Part shown: positions 7,348 through 61,932 of the stretch, piece by piece
Layout: every line of letters begins with the position of its first letter
Numbering within the stretch: the first letter of the stretch is position 1
NCBI GenBank assembly: GCA_022561055.1
Contig: JADFRY010000002.1
Location: 54,064-118,063 of the forward strand
DNA length: 64,000 nucleotides
Direction: 5' to 3'
DNA from: Nanobdellota archaeon
GTDB lineage: Archaea > Nanobdellota > Nanobdellia > Pacearchaeales > GW2011-AR1
Notes under the pieces: generated by a model
The model's input: the letters and a program-made list of their open reading frames with translations, nothing else
What the model was told of the DNA's origin: nothing
Databases searched by the model: none
Position numbers and translations under genes: made by a program

Positions 7348-7886
7348 TGGCATCATTAAGAAAGGCATCAGCATATTCTAAGAAGAAGGCCAGGCCTTAT
7401 ACTCGGAAGTCCAAGAAGAAGTCAAAGTCTTACATTAAAGTTATCCCGCAAAATAAAATTGTCAAATATAATTTAGGAAATATAAAATCTTATCAAGAAG
7501 GAAAATTCAAGTATGTTGTTAGATTTATCGCGAATGAGAAAGTGCAGATTAGGGACAACGCTATTGAGGCATGCAGACAACTTTTAAACAAAACACTCGA
7601 AAGAAAAATTCCAAATCAATATTATTTTGGAATTAAAGTCTTTCCTCATCATATTTTAAGAAACAATAAAACTGCTGCCGGCGCAGGAGCTGACAGACTT
7701 TCTAGCGGAATGAAACATTCTTTCGGAATTATTGAAGGCCGCGCCGCTATAGTTAAACCAGGCAAAGAAATCTTTATTGTTGCTTGTGAAACAGAACAAG
7801 GCGCTCGTATTGCGCGACAAGCCATGACAATGATAAAGTCTAAGGTTCCATGTAAAAGCATAATAAGATTCCAAAAAATTCCTTAA
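7347..7886 (+). CDS. rpl10e: ribosomal protein L10e (uL16)
   Basis: MASLRKASAYSKKKARPYTRKS... and GADRLSSGMKHSFG are typical of archaeal L10e/L16. Confidence 0.85.
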   Translation: MASLRKASAYSKKKARPYTRKSKKKSKSYIKVIPQNKIVKYNLGNIKSYQEGKFKYVVRFIANEKVQIRDNAIEACRQLLNKTLERKIPNQYYFGIKVFPHHILRNNKTAAGAGADRLSSGMKHSFGIIEGRAAIVKPGKEIFIVACETEQGARIARQAMTMIKSKVPCKSIIRFQKIP

Positions 7887-7933
7887 AAGGAATTTTTGGG
7901 CGTTCAAGAATTCTAGTTAAAGAATTCTTGACG
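7871..7933. repeat. two adjacent hairpin modules, related to modules of the 17.3 kb and 61.6 kb elements
   Basis: ccaaaaaattcc/ttaaaa/ggaatttttgg is followed by cgttcaagaattct/agttaa/agaattcttgacg. The site lies between convergent genes. Confidence 0.55.
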
Positions 7934-7979
7934 TGAGAAAGTTGAGTGATTCTTCTTTTTTAGTGTTAATATAACAACC

Positions 7980-17247: not shown

Positions 17248-17299
17248 TTTCTCTTTATAGTAATTAGGACGAGAGTTATTTAAATGTTGTCTGAATATC

Positions 17300-17434
17300 A
17301 AAAAGTCTTTGCGTTTTTTGTTTGGACTTTTGGATGCAAGAAAATTCCTCCTGAAAGTAATTTTCTGCACAGAGAATTGCAATTGTCAGCAATTCTCTTG
17401 TGTTCAAGATGCTCTTTTGCAAGCATCTTGACAT
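17300..17434 (+). repeat. structured intergenic element, copy A (four consecutive hairpins)
   Basis: About 70 nt are near-identical to 61584..61661 (ggatgcaagaaaattcc...aattttctgcacagagaattgc...gcaattctcttgtg.tcaaga). The flanking stems differ but stay complementary. Confidence 0.6.
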
Positions 17435-17495
17435 AGATCAAGAATTTTCTCTATGATTTTTGATGAAGAAACTTTTGTATTAGCATCTATGAGTC

Positions 17496-51276: not shown

Positions 51277-51594
51277 ATGGCAGGAAATATTAAGGAATTG
51301 AATGCTAATAATTTTGATGATTTTATAAAAAAGGGTGATTGCATTGTGGATTTTTATGCTGATTGGTGTGGTCCTTGTAAAGCTATGGCTTCACATTTTG
51401 AGAAGGCTGTAGAGAAATTAAAAGATGTTAAATTTGGAAAGATTAATGTTGATGGCAACCAAAAATTAACTGGAAGATTTATGGTTATGTCAGTACCAAC
51501 GACTATCTTTTTCAAGAATAGAGAGCAAGTTGATAGGCATACTGGTGCAATGAGTTTTGAAGATATTAGAAATTTCTGTGAGAGAAATTTCTAA
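51277..51594 (+). CDS. trxA: thioredoxin
   Basis: DFYADWCGPCK active site. 105 aa. Confidence 0.85.
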   Translation: MAGNIKELNANNFDDFIKKGDCIVDFYADWCGPCKAMASHFEKAVEKLKDVKFGKINVDGNQKLTGRFMVMSVPTTIFFKNREQVDRHTGAMSFEDIRNFCERNF

Positions 51595-51597
51595 GCC

Positions 51598-51621
51598 AGA
51601 AAACAAAGGATATTGTTTTCT
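51598..51621 (+). terminator. 9-bp hairpin directly after trxA
   Basis: agaaaacaa / aggata / ttgttttct, starting 4 nt after the stop codon. Confidence 0.4.
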
Positions 51622-51658
51622 ATATTAGGAGGAGAGTTGAGGATAATTTCTAATAAAA

Positions 51659-51670: not shown

Positions 51671-51692
51671 AATTTAATTCTTTTTCAGTTAT

Positions 51693-51767
51693 GGTCCCGT
51701 AGCTCAGCCTGGTCAGAGCACTGGGCTTTTAACCCAGGTGTCGCGGGTTCAAATCCCGTCGGGGCCA
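51693..51767 (+). tRNA. tRNA-Lys (anticodon UUU), no intron, CCA not encoded
   Basis: Hand-folded cloverleaf: acceptor GGUCCCG/CGGGGCC, D arm GCUC/GAGC, anticodon stem CUGGG/CCCAG with loop CU-UUU-AA, T arm GCGGG-UUCAAAU-CCCGU, discriminator A. Confidence 0.9.
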
Positions 51768-51887
51768 TTTTTGCAAAATCCGGGCAAAAGTTTATAAACC
51801 CACATTTATAATCTTTTATTATTACTAAGTTGTTAAAGGAATTTCAGCGTAATTTAAAACAATTAAATTAACTTCAAAAAAGCTCCC

Positions 51888-55868: not shown

Positions 55869-58800
55869 ATGCCAGAAATAATAAAAAAACAAGTTAAAGC
55901 TTTAAAATTTAGTTTGATTAGTCCGGCGCAGATAAAAAAAATTAGTGCTGCCAAGGTTGTTACTCCTGAGCTCTATGATATTGACGGTTTCCCTGTTGAT
56001 GGAGGTATTATGGACTTGCGTTTAGGAGCTATTGACCCTGGAGTCAGATGTAGAACCTGCGGCGGGAGATTAAAAGAATGTCTAGGACATGTTGGAAGTA
56101 TTGAACTTGCTCGGCCAGTTATTCATATAAAATATGTTCCTTTGATTGAATTATTTTTGAGAAGTTTTTGTCATAAGTGTGGAAAACTTATGTTGGAAGA
56201 AGAAAAACAGAAAAAATTTGGTCCTGCTGAGAGCGCTAAAAAGGCTAGAGATAAAAAAAGATGTCCATATTGTAATGAAGTCCAAGAGAAAATTAAACTT
56301 GAGAAGCCAAATTTATTCTCCATGGGGAAAAAAAGAATATTCCCTAATGAAATAAGAGAGATGCTTGTTACAATTCCTGATGAGGAAGCTAGGAAAATTG
56401 GAGTAAATCCTAAAACATGCAGACCAGAGTGGGCAATTCTTTCTCTGTTGTTAGTACCGAGTGTTATTGTAAGACCTTCAATTACTTTAGAAACAGGAGA
56501 AAGGAGCGAAGATGATCTAACCCATAAGTTATCTGATATTATTAGAGCTAATCAAAGATTGTGGGAAAATTTGAATGCTGGAGCGCCGGAAGTAATTATT
56601 GAAGACTTATGGGATTTATTACAGTATCATATTACAACATTTTTTGATAATAATATTTCTAGAATACCACCAGCAAGACACAGGTCAGGACAGCCATTGA
56701 AAACAATAACTGAAAGAATTAAAGGTAAAGAAGGGAGGATTAGAAAGAACTTAGCTGGAAAAAGAGTTAACTTTTCTGGCAGAACAGTCGTTTCTCCAGA
56801 GCCTGCTCTCAACATTAATGAAGTTGGAGTTCCATTAGAAGTTGCAAAAATTATTACTGTTGCTGAGGCAGTAACAACTACAAATTTAGAATTTATTAAA
56901 AAGATTATTATAAATGGACGTGAAAAACATCCTGGAGCCAACTATGTTATTAGACCGGATGGAAAGAGAAAGAGAATTACCGAAGATCTAAAAGAGGAGC
57001 TTTGTGATGAAATCCAGCCAGGATATAAAGTTGAAAGACATTTACGGGACGGCGACGTTGTTCTTTTCAATAGACATCCATCTTTGCACAAACAAAGTCT
57101 TATGGCTCATTATGTAAGAGTCCTACCAGATAGAACATTTAAAATACATCCAACTGCTGCTTTCCCTTATAACGCGGATTTTGATGGAGATGAAGTCAAT
57201 ATACACTCTCCTCAGACAGAAGAGGCAAGGTCTGAAGCAAAAATTCTTTTAGATATTAAAAATAATATTATTTCTTCTAAGAATAATATAAATCTTGTTG
57301 GATGTATTGCAGATGCTATAACCGGCTCTTACATTTTAGGAAAAGAAAAATTTGATAAGCCAGACGCAGATCAGTTACTGTTTTCTGCAGGAGTCATCAA
57401 TAGTTTGAAAGGTAAAGAAATCTCTGGTATAAATCTGTTTAGTCAAATATTACCTAAAGAAGCTAATATAAAAATGCCTTCGGAAATCTTAAGTAAAAAT
57501 ACATTAGGGTCGGAAGATGGCGAGATGGTTAAGATATTGGACAAAAATTGCGGAAGAGAAGCAACACTTGAATCTATAAGAAGAGCATTCTCCCTCGGGA
57601 CAATTTACTTATCTAGAAGAGGATATACGCTTTCGTTGAGAGATTTGGATGTTTCAGAAAAAGTCAAGAAAATAACTAGGGAAGTTATAGAAGAAGCTGA
57701 GAAAAAAACTAAAGAAATAATAAAAGATTCAGAAATTGGAAAATTAGAGATAATTCCAGGAAAAAGTATTGAAGAGTCAAGAGAAGTCAAGATTTCTAAA
57801 GTATTGAATGAGATAAGGTCAAATGTTGGTCAGATTGTTCAGAGTCATTTTCCAAAAGAAGGAAACGTTAGTAAAATGATTGCTGCCGGAGGAGGCGGAA
57901 GTATATTAAACATTACTCAAATTGGTTGTTGTGTTGGACAGCAAATTTTATGGAATGAACGAATTAGTTTTGGCTACACAGGAAGAACTCTTTCTTTTTT
58001 TGAGAAGGGAGATATAAAAGCGGAATCACGCGGGTTTATAAAATCGTCTTTTTTCGATGGTTTGAAGCCCAGTGAGTTTTTCTTCGGAGCCATTACAGGA
58101 AGAGATGCCCTCATGGACACTGCTTTAAGGACACCTAAATCAGGATATCTTTACAGGAGATTAGTTAGCGCCTTACAAGATTTGAAATTAGAGTATGATG
58201 AAACAGTAAGAGATGCTTCTGGCAACATAATCCAGTTCTTATACGGTGGTGATGGATTGGATGTATCCGCTTTGCATTTAAATAAAAAAGTTTGTCCCGG
58301 CGAAGCTGTTGGAGTTATCACAGCCCAATCATTTGGAGAAGCTTCAACACAAATGGTCTTAAATGTATTCCACTCTGCAGGTGTTGCTGAAATGCAGATT
58401 ACACTCGGATTGCCAAGGTTAATTGAGATTTTTGATGCAAGAAAACAACCATCTACTCCATCAATGGAAATTTATCTTGACAGAGAACATAATAATGAAA
58501 ATGATGCAAGAGTTATTGCAGAAAAAATTAAAGAAGTAAAAGTAGAAGGGATTGCTTCTGAAATAAAGATTGATTTTTCTGGAAAGAAGATTGAGATAGA
58601 GTTGGACAATGCTGCCTTAAAAACAGTTCACGTCGGGGTGCAAAAAATAGTTGACAGACTAAATGAAAAAGGATTTAAAGTTAAAAAGAGAAACATAAAG
58701 ATTAGTTTAAATGTTTTGGATATGGACTTTAAATCTATTTACAAATTAAAAGGAAAACTAAGAAAAACAATTATATCTGGAATTAAGAATATCAATCAAG

Positions 58801-59282
58801 TTATTGTTGCTAAGAGAGAAAAAGAGTTTGTTATTTTAACTTCGGGAAGTAATTTGCGAGATATTATGGAAATAAAGGGGGTCAATAAAGATAGAGTGGT
58901 TACGAATAATATTCATGAAGTTGCAGATGTTCTCGGTATTGAGGCGGCAAGACAAGCGATTGTAAATGAAGTAAAAAAAGTTCTTGAAACTCAAGGTTTA
59001 GATATTAATTTTAGACATCTTGATTTGATTGCCGATGCAATGACGTCTTCTGGAGTTGTTAGAGGGGTTACACGAATGGGAATTATATCTCATAAATCGA
59101 GTATTTTTGCACGGGCTGCATTCGAAACTCCTGATAAACAATTTATTAATGCAACTATACAAGGAAAAAAAGATGAGTTGGCTTCAGTGATTGAAAATAT
59201 TATACTTAATCAACCGGTTCCCGTCGGTACAGGCTTGCCCGGCTTGCTTGTTAAAGTCACAGGTCCTTTGGTTAGGAAGTGA
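55869..59282 (+). CDS. rpoA: RNA polymerase subunit A, single polypeptide covering A' and A'' regions
   Basis: One ORF contains the N-terminal zinc motif (CRTCGG...CLGH), NADFDGDE, the bridge helix (GRDALMDTALRTPKSGY) and the trigger-loop block normally at the A'' N-terminus (PGEAVGVITAQSFGEASTQMVLNVFHSAGV). Confidence 0.95.
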   Translation: MPEIIKKQVKALKFSLISPAQIKKISAAKVVTPELYDIDGFPVDGGIMDLRLGAIDPGVRCRTCGGRLKECLGHVGSIELARPVIHIKYVPLIELFLRSFCHKCGKLMLEEEKQKKFGPAESAKKARDKKRCPYCNEVQEKIKLEKPNLFSMGKKRIFPNEIREMLVTIPDEEARKIGVNPKTCRPEWAILSLLLVPSVIVRPSITLETGERSEDDLTHKLSDIIRANQRLWENLNAGAPEVIIEDLWDLLQYHITTFFDNNISRIPPARHRSGQPLKTITERIKGKEGRIRKNLAGKRVNFSGRTVVSPEPALNINEVGVPLEVAKIITVAEAVTTTNLEFIKKIIINGREKHPGANYVIRPDGKRKRITEDLKEELCDEIQPGYKVERHLRDGDVVLFNRHPSLHKQSLMAHYVRVLPDRTFKIHPTAAFPYNADFDGDEVNIHSPQTEEARSEAKILLDIKNNIISSKNNINLVGCIADAITGSYILGKEKFDKPDADQLLFSAGVINSLKGKEISGINLFSQILPKEANIKMPSEILSKNTLGSEDGEMVKILDKNCGREATLESIRRAFSLGTIYLSRRGYTLSLRDLDVSEKVKKITREVIEEAEKKTKEIIKDSEIGKLEIIPGKSIEESREVKISKVLNEIRSNVGQIVQSHFPKEGNVSKMIAAGGGGSILNITQIGCCVGQQILWNERISFGYTGRTLSFFEKGDIKAESRGFIKSSFFDGLKPSEFFFGAITGRDALMDTALRTPKSGYLYRRLVSALQDLKLEYDETVRDASGNIIQFLYGGDGLDVSALHLNKKVCPGEAVGVITAQSFGEASTQMVLNVFHSAGVAEMQITLGLPRLIEIFDARKQPSTPSMEIYLDREHNNENDARVIAEKIKEVKVEGIASEIKIDFSGKKIEIELDNAALKTVHVGVQKIVDRLNEKGFKVKKRNIKISLNVLDMDFKSIYKLKGKLRKTIISGIKNINQVIVAKREKEFVILTSGSNLRDIMEIKGVNKDRVVTNNIHEVADVLGIEAARQAIVNEVKKVLETQGLDINFRHLDLIADAMTSSGVVRGVTRMGIISHKSSIFARAAFETPDKQFINATIQGKKDELASVIENIILNQPVPVGTGLPGLLVKVTGPLVRK

Positions 59283-60862: not shown

Positions 60863-61456
60863 ATGAAATTCAAAGTATTTGATTTATACGACATGGATGA
60901 AGTTGAGCTTAGTGATGTTGCGTTAAAGCCATACATCAATTTGGAATCAAAACTTTTGATAAAATCACAAGGAAGAAATCTTTGGAAATTTTCAAGTGCA
61001 AAGGTCCATATTCTTGAGAGAATGGCAAATAGAATTGCTGTGCCCGGACACGTCGGTAAAAAACATAAAATAATTACTTCCTGGGGGTCTGGCAAATATG
61101 AGAGCAATATGAAAATTGTCTTGGATGTTTTAGAGATGATTAAAAAAAGAAAAAAAGAAAATCCTATCCAAGTTTTGATAAGGGCAATTGAGAATTGCTC
61201 TCCGAGAGACGAGACTACGACAATTGAATATGGTGGAGCAAGATATCCTCAAGCAGTTGATGTTAGTCCGTTAAGAAGAATCAATCTTGCTATTAGATGG
61301 TTAATTCAAGGATCTTATCAAAAATGTTTTGGAAAAAAGAAAAAAATGTATGAAAGTCTGGCTAATGAGATCATGTTCGCTTCCGATGGTAATATGGAAA
61401 GTTATGCAATGCAAAAAAAGAACGAATCTGAAAAGCAAGCAGATGCTGCCAGATAA
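60863..61456 (+). CDS. rps7: ribosomal protein S7 (uS7)
   Basis: It starts at MKFKVFDLYD, 1 nt after the S12 stop and behind a GGGGAGGAG Shine-Dalgarno (60849..60857). C-terminal ...AMQKKNESEKQADAAR is typical of S7. Confidence 0.9.
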   Translation: MKFKVFDLYDMDEVELSDVALKPYINLESKLLIKSQGRNLWKFSSAKVHILERMANRIAVPGHVGKKHKIITSWGSGKYESNMKIVLDVLEMIKKRKKENPIQVLIRAIENCSPRDETTTIEYGGARYPQAVDVSPLRRINLAIRWLIQGSYQKCFGKKKKMYESLANEIMFASDGNMESYAMQKKNESEKQADAAR

Positions 61457-61527
61457 TTTTAATTAATAAGTAGATTAAACTTAATTTTATTTAACTATTT
61501 AAATTTTGATTTTACTTTTGCATAATC

Positions 61528-61719
61528 AAAAAAACGATGCGCCACCACGCCTTGAAAGGCTGGTTTGACGGCGCTCGTTTTTAGGATGCAAGAAAATTCC
61601 GCCAACTTGGAATTTTCTGCACAGAGAATTGCAAAATCAGGCAATTCTCTTGTGCTCAAGAACAGTGCTTCATCCATTGGCTAAAGCCAATGGTTTTCGC
61701 ACTCGACTGTTCTTGACAT
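61528..61719 (+). repeat. structured intergenic element, copy B (four hairpins; candidate ncRNA or MITE-like repeat)
   Basis: H0 61528..61582, linker ggatgcaag, H1 61588..61620, H2 61618..61655, H3 61656..61716 with inner ccattggc/gccaatgg hairpin. The core is near-identical to 17332..17409. Confidence 0.6.
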
Positions 61720-61788
61720 AAACATTTTTCCAAACCTTTAAATACAATAAACTGTTAACAGTATTAACTTAAAAGGAGGTGTTAAACA

Positions 61789-61932
61789 ATGGCTGGATGG
61801 AAAGCTTGGCTTGTAATTGTTGGTGGAGTATTGGCTTTAATCGGTCAATGGTGGGGAATGAACTTTTATCTTCCTGCAATCGGCGGTGTTCTTGCAATAA
61901 TTGGTGGTATCGGTAGTATGACTGGTAGATAA
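61789..61932 (+). CDS. 47-aa Gly-rich two-helix membrane peptide (not in ORF track)
   Basis: MAGWKAWLVIVGGVLALIGQWWGMNFYLPAIGGVLAIIGGIGSMTGR, preceded by AAAGGAGGTG 8 nt upstream. Confidence 0.4.
   Translation: MAGWKAWLVIVGGVLALIGQWWGMNFYLPAIGGVLAIIGGIGSMTGR

Follow-up and report, generated by a model that had tools for sequence, protein, structure and literature searches.

A hairpin-rich repeat downstream of rps7 in a Nanobdellota archaeon: probably one insertion of a small, gene-less mobile DNA family

We analyzed a 64,000-nucleotide stretch of a Nanobdellota archaeon genome (GCA_022561055.1, contig JADFRY010000002.1, positions 54,064 to 118,063 of the forward strand; hereafter the window, with positions counted from its first letter), focusing on a chain of hairpins that follows the ribosomal protein gene rps7. 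The gene content of the window includes rpoA, L30e, NusA, rps12, rps7, and EF-2. On the + strand, rps7 occupies 60863..61456 (Pfam Ribosomal_S7, E = 1e-35), and an open reading frame (ORF) for a 47-aa membrane protein, which has a homolog in a related locus (L005), lies at 61789..61932. The encoded Rps7 is identical to an NCBI protein labelled 'MAG: Nanoarchaeota archaeon' (MAG, metagenome-assembled genome); the next closest relatives share no more than 80% identity with it, several bearing the label Pacearchaeota. Between these genes, 68 nt from the rps7 stop codon and 69 nt ahead of the 47-aa ORF, sits the element that we call copy B. Its core, delimited at 61527..61719 (+) by sequence, fold, and the flank profile of the family described below, runs from CAAAAAAACG... 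through ...TTGACAT and is bordered by an invariant AT (61525-61526) on the 5' side and by AA on the 3' side.

The sequence of 61525-61720 reads as four stem-loops in direct abutment. An original prediction, made from the sequence alone, had recognized these four hairpins, beginning one base off at the 5' side (61528 instead of 61527) and ending exactly at the 3' boundary, and folding confirms them. For the + strand of 61520-61725, the minimum free energy is -91 kcal/mol, compared with -47 +/- 4.2 kcal/mol for 200 dinucleotide shuffles, none of which folds as well (0/200; z = -10.6), and the minus strand of the same segment reaches -88.6 kcal/mol (z = -8.5). Copy B is also richer in G+C (45%) than the adjoining spacers (12% and 25%), as had been noticed, and than the 64-kb window (34%).

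All parts of copy B are given on the + strand. In the fold of 61525-61720, the 5' near-terminal hairpin, H0 (61525..61587), has the outer stem ATC.AAAAAACGATGCGCC / GGCGCTCGTTTTT..GAT and encloses an optional inner hairpin, ACCA-C-GCCT TGAA AGGC TGGT (61544-61564), followed by TTG. The H0/H1 junction GGATGCA (61584..61590) is kept in 24 of the 29 aligned copies that were found by H2; its GAT is the partner of the 5' ATC and its CA forms the closing pairs of H1, with RNAalifold placing the pairs C6:G40 and A7:U39 there. H1 (61591..61618; AGAAAATTCC / GGAATTTTCT, with a variable loop) is defined by the fold and by compensatory variants, and H2 (61619..61655; GCACAGAGAATTGC / GCAATTCTCT-T-GTGC, with a conserved bulged T) by the fold and by covariation, the base of H2, CACAG...CTTGTG, being invariant. 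The 3' near-terminal hairpin, H3 (61656..61716 by folding), has the foot TCAAGAACAG / CTGTTCTTGA and carries the second optional inner hairpin, CCATTGGC TAAA GCCAATGG (61674-61693), followed by TTTTC. The conserved 3' terminal motif GACAT (61715..61719) was defined by the flank profile of 65 copies. A CAAGA...TCTTG foot is common to H1, H2, and H3. The pairing of H0 and H3 is less regular than the perfect self-complementarity originally described, as copy B has a bulged C and internal loops in these hairpins and the H0 stem of the second copy in the window is short.

That second copy, copy A, occupies 17299..17434 (+), with an AT directly 5' at 17297-17298, and consists of a short H0 without an inner hairpin, H1, H2, and a short H3. 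The near-identity of its core (17332..17409) to that of copy B, part of the original prediction, was reproduced by blastn, which aligns the two at 84% identity over 83 nt, from GGATGCA to TCAAGA. All differences in this stretch lie in two loops, which are unrelated in sequence, and the stem and junction bases are 100% the same. Copy B has an inner hairpin in both H0 and H3, and copy A has neither. Copy A (17297-17435) folds at -47.9 kcal/mol (z = -5.6), and the covariance model R1 scores 85 bits on the H1+H2 core of copy B (61584-61657) and 82 bits on copy A (17332-17405). The neighbors of copy A, both on the minus strand, are a cytidylyltransferase-like gene and a gene for a 511-aa protein of unknown function. 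Long hairpins are uncommon in the window: only 17 have at least 10 paired bases, and 8 of these 17 cluster in three loci, at 7.9, 17.3, and 61.6 kb.

Searches beyond the window reveal that the two copies belong to a dispersed family. A genome scan with the H2 hairpin pattern, using one genome per species, returned 28 loci, 27 of which come from nine DPANN assemblies labelled Nanoarchaeota, Pacearchaeota, or Woesearchaeota, with 7, 6, 5, 4, 2, 1, 1, 1, and 1 matches per assembly. The remaining locus (L035, from a Treponema sp. MAG) lacks the other motifs and is unrelated; the pattern there matched two copies of a tandemly repeated, palindrome-containing unit on a spirochaete contig. A metagenome scan with the H0 motif, which is independent of H1-H3, yielded 62 loci, mostly from groundwater (Hainich wells, Rifle). 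Members in which the exact patterns are missing, such as L021:780-855 and L023:1198-1256, were added both by a sequence profile and by R1. An 18-mer scan of viral contigs gave two matches, located in a phage coding region of closely similar contigs, which we attribute to chance.

The 66 unique copies range from 97 to 303 nt, with a median of 170 nt. Proteins flanking the copies are almost all unrelated between loci, the exception being two small syntenic blocks, each in a pair of loci, and no neighboring gene recurs across the loci. Relative to neighboring ORFs, 11 copies are tandem sense, 12 are tandem antisense, 8 lie between convergent genes, and 6 lie between divergent genes. Many copies begin 0-30 nt past a stop codon, on either side. 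Copies from one genome have H1 and H3 types in common that differ from the types of other genomes, a uniformity that fits recent spread or gene conversion. Literature searches gave no account of this hairpin family, and Rfam 15 holds no such family. The family is previously undescribed, yet its kind, a hairpin-bearing non-autonomous mobile element, is known and calls for no new principle.

Several loci show arrangements of separate interest. Tail-to-tail (inverted) pairs of elements, about 35 nt apart (..GACATGAC...ATGTC..), occur in L042, L061, L069, L082, and L085 and recall the doublets formed by repetitive extragenic palindromic (REP) sequences. In L031 and L084, the 3' end of the element is within approximately 20-30 nt of a tRNA gene encoded on the opposite strand. 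Four metagenome contigs (L081, L087, L097, and L099) contain the same truncated copy, in which H0 and H1 are followed by unrelated sequence. A tyrosine-recombinase-like ORF lies about 2 kb away in L081 and a reverse-transcriptase-like ORF about 3 kb away in L099; neither showed a link to the element.

Across the family, the element is built as a chain, H0-H1-H2-H3, in which some hairpins are optional and modules can be missing, nested, or duplicated. Conservation is concentrated at the helix junctions and the two termini (ATCAAAAAGTCC, GGATGCA, CTGCACAG, CTTGTGCTCA, and TGACAT), while loops are free and stems vary but stay paired. The 5' start is the flanking AT followed by CAAAAAGTCC...GGACTTTTGGAT, which forms H0; an alternative H0, CAAAAAAACGATGCGCC...GGCGCTCGTTTTTAGGAT, is seen in copy B. 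The standard order after H0 is GCA, one variable bulged base, H1, CTGCACAG, H2 with its conserved bulged T, and CTTGTGC, and the standard 3' part is TCA, the H3 stem, and TGACAT. Inner hairpins of H0 and H3 take the form CC-stem-T(A/G)AA-stem-GG followed by TTT(T/G) and are present in some copies and absent from others. H1 is missing from L068 and L090, and both H1 and H2 are missing from L084. Conversely, additional hairpins with a TCAAGA...TCTTGA foot occur between modules or nested in loops (L012, L013, L022, L043, L060, and L096).

A two-hairpin cassette of approximately 60-70 nt (..TCAAGAAC-loop-GTTCTTGA-TGRCC-ATCAAGAATC-loop-GATTCTTGAGG) was also observed at several positions of the host element: in H0 (L013, L022), in H3 (L043, L060, L062, L083, L055, L070), between H0 and H1 (L012, L028), and inside or beside H1/H2 (L038, L048). 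It often sits exactly within the T(A/G)AA loop of an inner hairpin. This cassette resembles a smaller mobile unit with the larger element as its target.

Base pairing in the stems is maintained through sequence change. We scored H1 and H2 in 37 cores, 35 of which had been found by H0 only. In this set, 92.6% of the cells are paired, and both sides have changed in 16 of the 24 pairs (93 cells); none of 500 shuffles equals the observed pairing or number of double changes, and controls in which the partner was slid by 1-3 columns give 42-59% paired cells and 7-13 double-change cells. Both-side changes affect 8 of the 10 pairs of H1. In the H0-found set, which involves no selection for H2, 8 of the 14 H2 pairs have changed on both sides with 96% of cells paired. 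RNAalifold recovers the same two helices. Compensatory variants of H1 include GAGAAATC/GATTTCTC, GCAAATC/GATTTGC, and GGAAAA/TTTTCC. The H3 foot appears as TCAAGA/TCTTGA, TCGAAG/CTTCGA, TCACGAACG/CGTTCGTGA, and TCAGGAATGC/GCATTCCTGA and has 121 double-change cells, where shuffles average 35 and never exceed 53. Because the 5' arm of H3 was chosen as the best complement, its paired percentage is inflated; this arm nearly always begins directly after the conserved TGTGC.

Selection on structure is supported across the family. True compensatory change is seen only at the level of the family; the difference between copies A and B in H0 and H3, originally described as compensatory, lies mostly in the presence or absence of the optional inner hairpin and in a different H3 stem. 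The strands differ: of the 66 unique copies, 50 fold better on the + strand (mean -2.2 kcal/mol, Wilcoxon p = 2e-6), the + strand has 199 G-U pairs as opposed to 130 on the other strand, the T-run after the inner hairpins occurs on the + strand only, and R1 scores the + strand 30-50 bits above the minus strand. Such a bias fits either an RNA or a single-stranded DNA intermediate.

The borders of the element are sharp. When 65 copies were aligned on their ends, the information on the left was approximately 0 from -70 to -4, weakly A-rich from -3 to -1, and then 1.5-2.3 bits at ATCAAAAAG; on the right, it fell to 0 two bases past GACAT, with only two A's beyond this motif. The element always lies 3' of an AT dinucleotide, and this fixed AT after A-rich bases would fit an IS200/IS605-type target motif. 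In copy B and in the family, H0 begins at the first bases and H3 stops 3 nt before the 3' end. Matches of 2-4 nt between the flanks, at any offset, are not above those in shuffles, giving no sign of a target duplication of that size. A fixed 2-nt AT duplication stays formally possible, with AT found at both junctions, and the junction is ambiguous by 2 nt since the element itself ends in AT. We detected no terminal inverted repeat: the best match between the ends has a mean of 4.4 nt and a maximum of 7 nt, compared with 2.8 nt in shuffles, and terminal similarity is limited to a short TCAA(A/G)A.

Comparison of rps7 loci indicates that the element is not a fixed part of this neighborhood. Two assemblies that are 99.98-100% identical over the region (L001 and L100) contain it. 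In L005, approximately 95 nt separate rps7 from the homologous 47-aa ORF and the element is absent; in L004, L008, and L101, rps7 is followed by other ORFs or plain AT-rich spacer, again with the element absent. The covariance model of the core finds no match in the rps7 loci of L004, L005, L008, and L101. Syntenic conservation after rps7 is ruled out, as these relatives with 77-80% identical Rps7 lack the element. We regard copy B as most probably a passenger within the rps12-rps7-EF2 gene cluster, and it would be transcribed along with these genes if they share a transcript. The mechanically called 60-aa ORF over copy B (61495..61677, minus strand) is an artefact, as originally proposed: no gene is called there in two independent assemblies, and no frame is kept open across the family.

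Two copies lie within protein genes, the insert being CAAAAAG...GACAT, set after an AT. In L027:2495-2629 (minus strand), a 132-nt core is in frame and stop-free and splits the Cupin_2 domain of a small cupin gene, so that the frame reads ...LLVEN, 44-45 element-encoded residues, LITLKKGDYLNIPAH..., and a normal stop. The ortholog in L022 (3333-3626, minus strand) is uninterrupted (...LKFEN SSVKMKEGDYIIIPAH...), and the 7-residue spacing is the same in both, indicating that nothing was duplicated; L022 has its own copy of the element approximately 80 nt downstream of the cupin gene. In L034:1704-1850 (MAG H52-bin126_1, JBBSYO010000044.1), a 144-nt core is in frame and stop-free within the intein of an MCM gene (1195-residue ORF), at the linker between the intein splicing domain and the LAGLIDADG domain (Intein_splicing and LAGLIDADG_3). 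The latter case nests one selfish element in another, and the insert would exit the mature MCM along with the intein.

The lengths of the family members are evenly distributed modulo 3 (22/22/22), few frames are stop-free, no open frame or peptide is conserved across the family, and the + strand ORF of copy A, used as a protein query, gave no candidates. With no family-wide open frame, the finding that both clear in-gene copies are stop-free multiples of 3 suggests that translatable insertions survived, not that the inserts are spliced. An intron, of bulge-helix-bulge or other type, was rejected on the grounds that the in-gene copies (132 and 144 nt) are stop-free in the host frame, and the lack of conserved flanks leaves no general exon-intron helix.

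A family that is dispersed and multi-copy, absent from the corresponding site in relatives, and inserted in coding sequences is a repeat, and to this extent the original suggestion of a repeat resembling a miniature inverted-repeat transposable element (MITE) holds; the terminal inverted repeats and target duplications of a MITE are missing, and the ends instead resemble those of palindrome-associated transposable elements (PATEs). We consider it probable that copies A and B are two insertions of one small (approximately 100-300 nt), gene-less, non-autonomous, PATE-like mobile DNA family of DPANN archaea. Haloarchaeal PATEs lack genes and are related to IS200/IS605-type transposons (Dyall-Smith et al. 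2011, PMC3119063). They are defined by the lack of terminal inverted repeats, by near-terminal palindromes, by the lack of target duplication, and by a length too short for a transposase (PMC3119063), and all four features are found here (no terminal inverted repeat, near-terminal palindromes, no duplication, 97-303 nt). Further likenesses are the archaeal hosts, the short, non-coding, multi-copy, and heterogeneous copies, the short conserved terminal oligonucleotide, and the presence of nested small repeats, the hairpin cassettes here resembling the small mobile repeats that hit PATEs in Haloquadratum (PMC3119063). The family differs from PATEs in that its body consists of abutting, covarying hairpins rather than two end hairpins and a spacer, its hosts are small-genome DPANN archaea, its hairpins lie 0-3 nt from the ends, and an IS605-type transposon with related ends was not found.

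The copies would be moved in trans by an enzyme encoded elsewhere, which would recognize the near-terminal H0 and H3 hairpins on one DNA strand together with the left-flank motif ending in AT. Mobilization might proceed via a single-stranded intermediate, as with the HUH/Y1 transposase TnpA on IS200/IS605 elements and their gene-less PATE derivatives. The hairpins may stay paired through the loss of lineages that, having lost pairing, stop spreading. Conserved junctions and covarying stems, combined with the lack of terminal inverted repeats and duplications, suggest hairpin recognition on one strand.

Several results weigh against this interpretation. The 10 window ORFs inspected for a transposase are all housekeeping genes, and neither Y1-like nor TnpB-like proteins came up when 539 ORFs from approximately 0.6 Mb of loci were put through a crude, non-rigorous motif screen. 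Among the 65 H0 matches, none was seen to belong to a larger element in which these ends enclose a gene. A blast search with joined flanks among the fetched loci gave no unoccupied match at the DNA level, so the evidence for insertion rests on diverged orthologs. In IS608, the cleavage sites lie approximately 19 and 10 nt from the hairpins, unlike the end-to-hairpin distance of 0-3 nt here. Because the copies are related, the shuffle and Wilcoxon figures overstate independence, although the variety of pair types across different genomes is still plain in the alignment. Finally, conserved junctions, covarying stems, and strand bias would also be expected of a functional RNA, and the two readings are not exclusive.

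An alternative is that the + strand acts as a functional structured RNA, such as an omega-RNA-type or other RNA-protein scaffold, for which mobility is only the vehicle. In its omega RNA version, the scaffold would lie at the right end of an element derived from IS200/IS605, and a TnpB/IscB-like nuclease would use it in trans, taking the 3' flank as its guide. The conserved helix junctions, the stems that covary freely, the variable loops, the strand bias in folding energy and G-U pairs, and the sharp 3' end at GACAT would all suit such an RNA, and omega RNAs, acted on in trans, are often encoded by PATEs (PMC10055086). We nevertheless judge this explanation unlikely. The loops are unconserved, H1 or both H1 and H2 are absent from the three loci noted above (L068, L090, and L084), the in-gene copies are compatible with translation, and the crude screen of loci found no TnpB-like ORF. 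A promoter, or a T-run at a fixed distance, is absent: information from -70 to -4 is lacking in 65 flanks, leaving no B recognition element or TATA box there, and 52 of 65 copies have no run of at least 5 T within 60 nt downstream. An independent archaeal small RNA (sRNA) gene was rejected for want of a conserved promoter and terminator, and the random orientation to neighbors likewise leaves the noncoding RNA gene offered in the original prediction unproven. Rfam 15 at its gathering score identifies only tRNA-Lys in the whole window, and no family matches either copy even at E <= 10 (best scores of 15-23 bits compared with thresholds of 50-176, E >= 0.1); the families covered include signal recognition particle RNA, RNase P RNA, C/D and H/ACA sRNAs, and IS605-associated motifs. 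The scan of the window for tRNA and tmRNA likewise found only the tRNA-Lys at 51692. C/D sRNAs were dismissed on the lack of an Rfam match, and H/ACA sRNAs on structure, as GACAT contains ACA but H3 is a plain stem-loop without a pocket in copy A and many other copies; no conserved G-A/A-G of a K-turn occurs in the family. A narrower proposal is that the H1-H2-H3 block, which stops exactly at the right boundary, is an omega-RNA-type guide scaffold on gene-less elements. A candidate TnpB/IscB-like protein, or another nuclease or recombinase, would use it in trans, reading the 3' flank as guide and the left motif ending in AT as the target-adjacent motif. This proposal strikes us as quite unlikely. 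Gene-less carriers of omega RNA are known (PMC10055086), and a structured, covarying scaffold ending at the right boundary of a transposon is what TnpB/IscB omega RNAs have; the family differs in that its hairpins are simple and unbranched and give no indication of a pseudoknot or triplex, and in having no nearby nuclease gene and no Rfam match.

The position of copy B raises the further question of a cis-acting 3' block of the rps7 transcript, maintained by the host for termination or protection from 3' exonucleases. Copy B is co-directional with rps7, the G+C-rich inner stems are followed by TTTT/TTTG on the + strand only, and many copies start shortly past stop codons on either side. Yet orientation is random (11 sense and 12 antisense among tandem copies, 6 copies between divergent genes), relatives keep the same gene order without the element, copies occur within coding sequences, and a hairpin-plus-T-run scan makes no call inside the element; an intrinsic terminator was rejected. 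Archaeal termination, moreover, relies on oligo-T tracts and aCPSF1 rather than on hairpins, which also counts against a cis-acting block, and we hold it to be very improbable. The high sequence conservation of H2 and the junctions, together with the CAAGA...TCTTG foot common to H1, H2, and H3, might instead mark the palindromes as duplex DNA sites for a regulator or chromatin protein, or as a replication or recombination site. A sequence-specific duplex site would forbid stems that vary with pairing kept, and operator palindromes were rejected for this reason; the two strands are also non-equivalent, and the genomic contexts are dispersed and random. We therefore place almost no weight on duplex-site recognition.

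The pneumococcal BOX repeat, boxA-boxB(n)-boxC, is intergenic, multi-copy, and strongly folding and has no known transposase. Its fixed 5' module, variable number of internal hairpin modules, and fixed 3' module recall the plan found here; BOX is bacterial and unrelated in sequence, and we know of no report of gene insertion or of the pattern of junction conservation and covariation for it. Rickettsia palindromic elements (RPEs), approximately 100-150 nt long, occur between genes and also in frame inside genes, where they are read through. RPE-like in-frame insertion fits the L027 Cupin_2 and L034 MCM intein copies but does not extend family-wide: the window copies are intergenic, only a minority of copies lie in genes, no open frame is consistent, and the frames of the two in-gene copies differ. 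Extragenic palindromes near gene ends, clustered or inverted pairs, and compensating changes are features of REP and bacterial interspersed mosaic elements (BIMEs), REPIN-RAYT systems, and the enterobacterial ERIC/IRU repeats as well. A REP unit, in contrast, is one palindrome, 20-40 nt long, that carries a conserved GTAG and is linked to a single-copy RAYT gene; REP/REPIN-RAYT was rejected given that no GTAG occurs at the hairpin feet and no Y1-like ORF was found in the loci by the crude screen. MITEs are similarly short, non-autonomous, multi-copy, and mostly intergenic, and a classical MITE was excluded by the absence of terminal inverted repeats (at least ~10 nt) and target duplications. 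A prokaryote-wide census of MITEs reports 105 per Mb in a Woesearchaeal genome, among the highest archaeal densities (PMC11602168). The concern that the two copies might be the ends of some larger, known mobile element was not borne out, as no such larger element came to light.

The genomes of DPANN archaea are tiny and gene-dense, and their mobile DNA is poorly known; the family would represent a recurrent parasite, found in at least nine DPANN assemblies and in many groundwater samples. It extends into a ribosomal protein/RNA polymerase gene cluster and sits in essential or conserved genes (MCM intein, cupin). For annotation, its copies can give rise to spurious ORF calls, apparent RNA genes, and odd protein insertions, all of which could be masked with a model of the R1 type. 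Hairpin recognition on one strand would offer a lead toward the responsible enzyme, and possibly a guide RNA, in DPANN lineages; were the guide scaffold real, these very small archaeal genomes would contain an RNA-guided mobile system, with the element as its RNA half.

Within the window, a possible degenerate relative was found at 7866..7938 (+), where R1 gives a weak match (23.5 bits, E = 2e-4) that scores similarly on both strands. The site lies between convergent genes and consists of two adjacent hairpins, CCAAAAAATTCCT TAAA AGGAATTTTTGG and TCAAGAATTCT AGTTAA AGAATTCTTGAC, the first of which covers the L10e stop codon. Judged by its sequence, it may be a decayed or short member of the family. 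Two AT-rich hairpins, TTAGAAATTTCT...AGAAATTTCTAA and CCAGAAAACAA...TTGTTTTCT, occur at 51561-51628, approximately 65 nt upstream of tRNA-Lys(UUU) (51692-51768), and R1 is borderline at 51561-51627 (15-16 bits, E ~0.02-0.04).

The rpoA region of the same gene cluster shows one further feature. In archaea, RpoA generally comes as two separate parts, A' and A''. In the window, 55869-59282 (+) is a single ORF of 1137 aa, and the identical gene in L100 and the homolog in L004, as called there, contain all five Rpb1 domains (PF04997, PF00623, PF04983, PF05000, and PF04998), such that A' and A'' appear to be fused.

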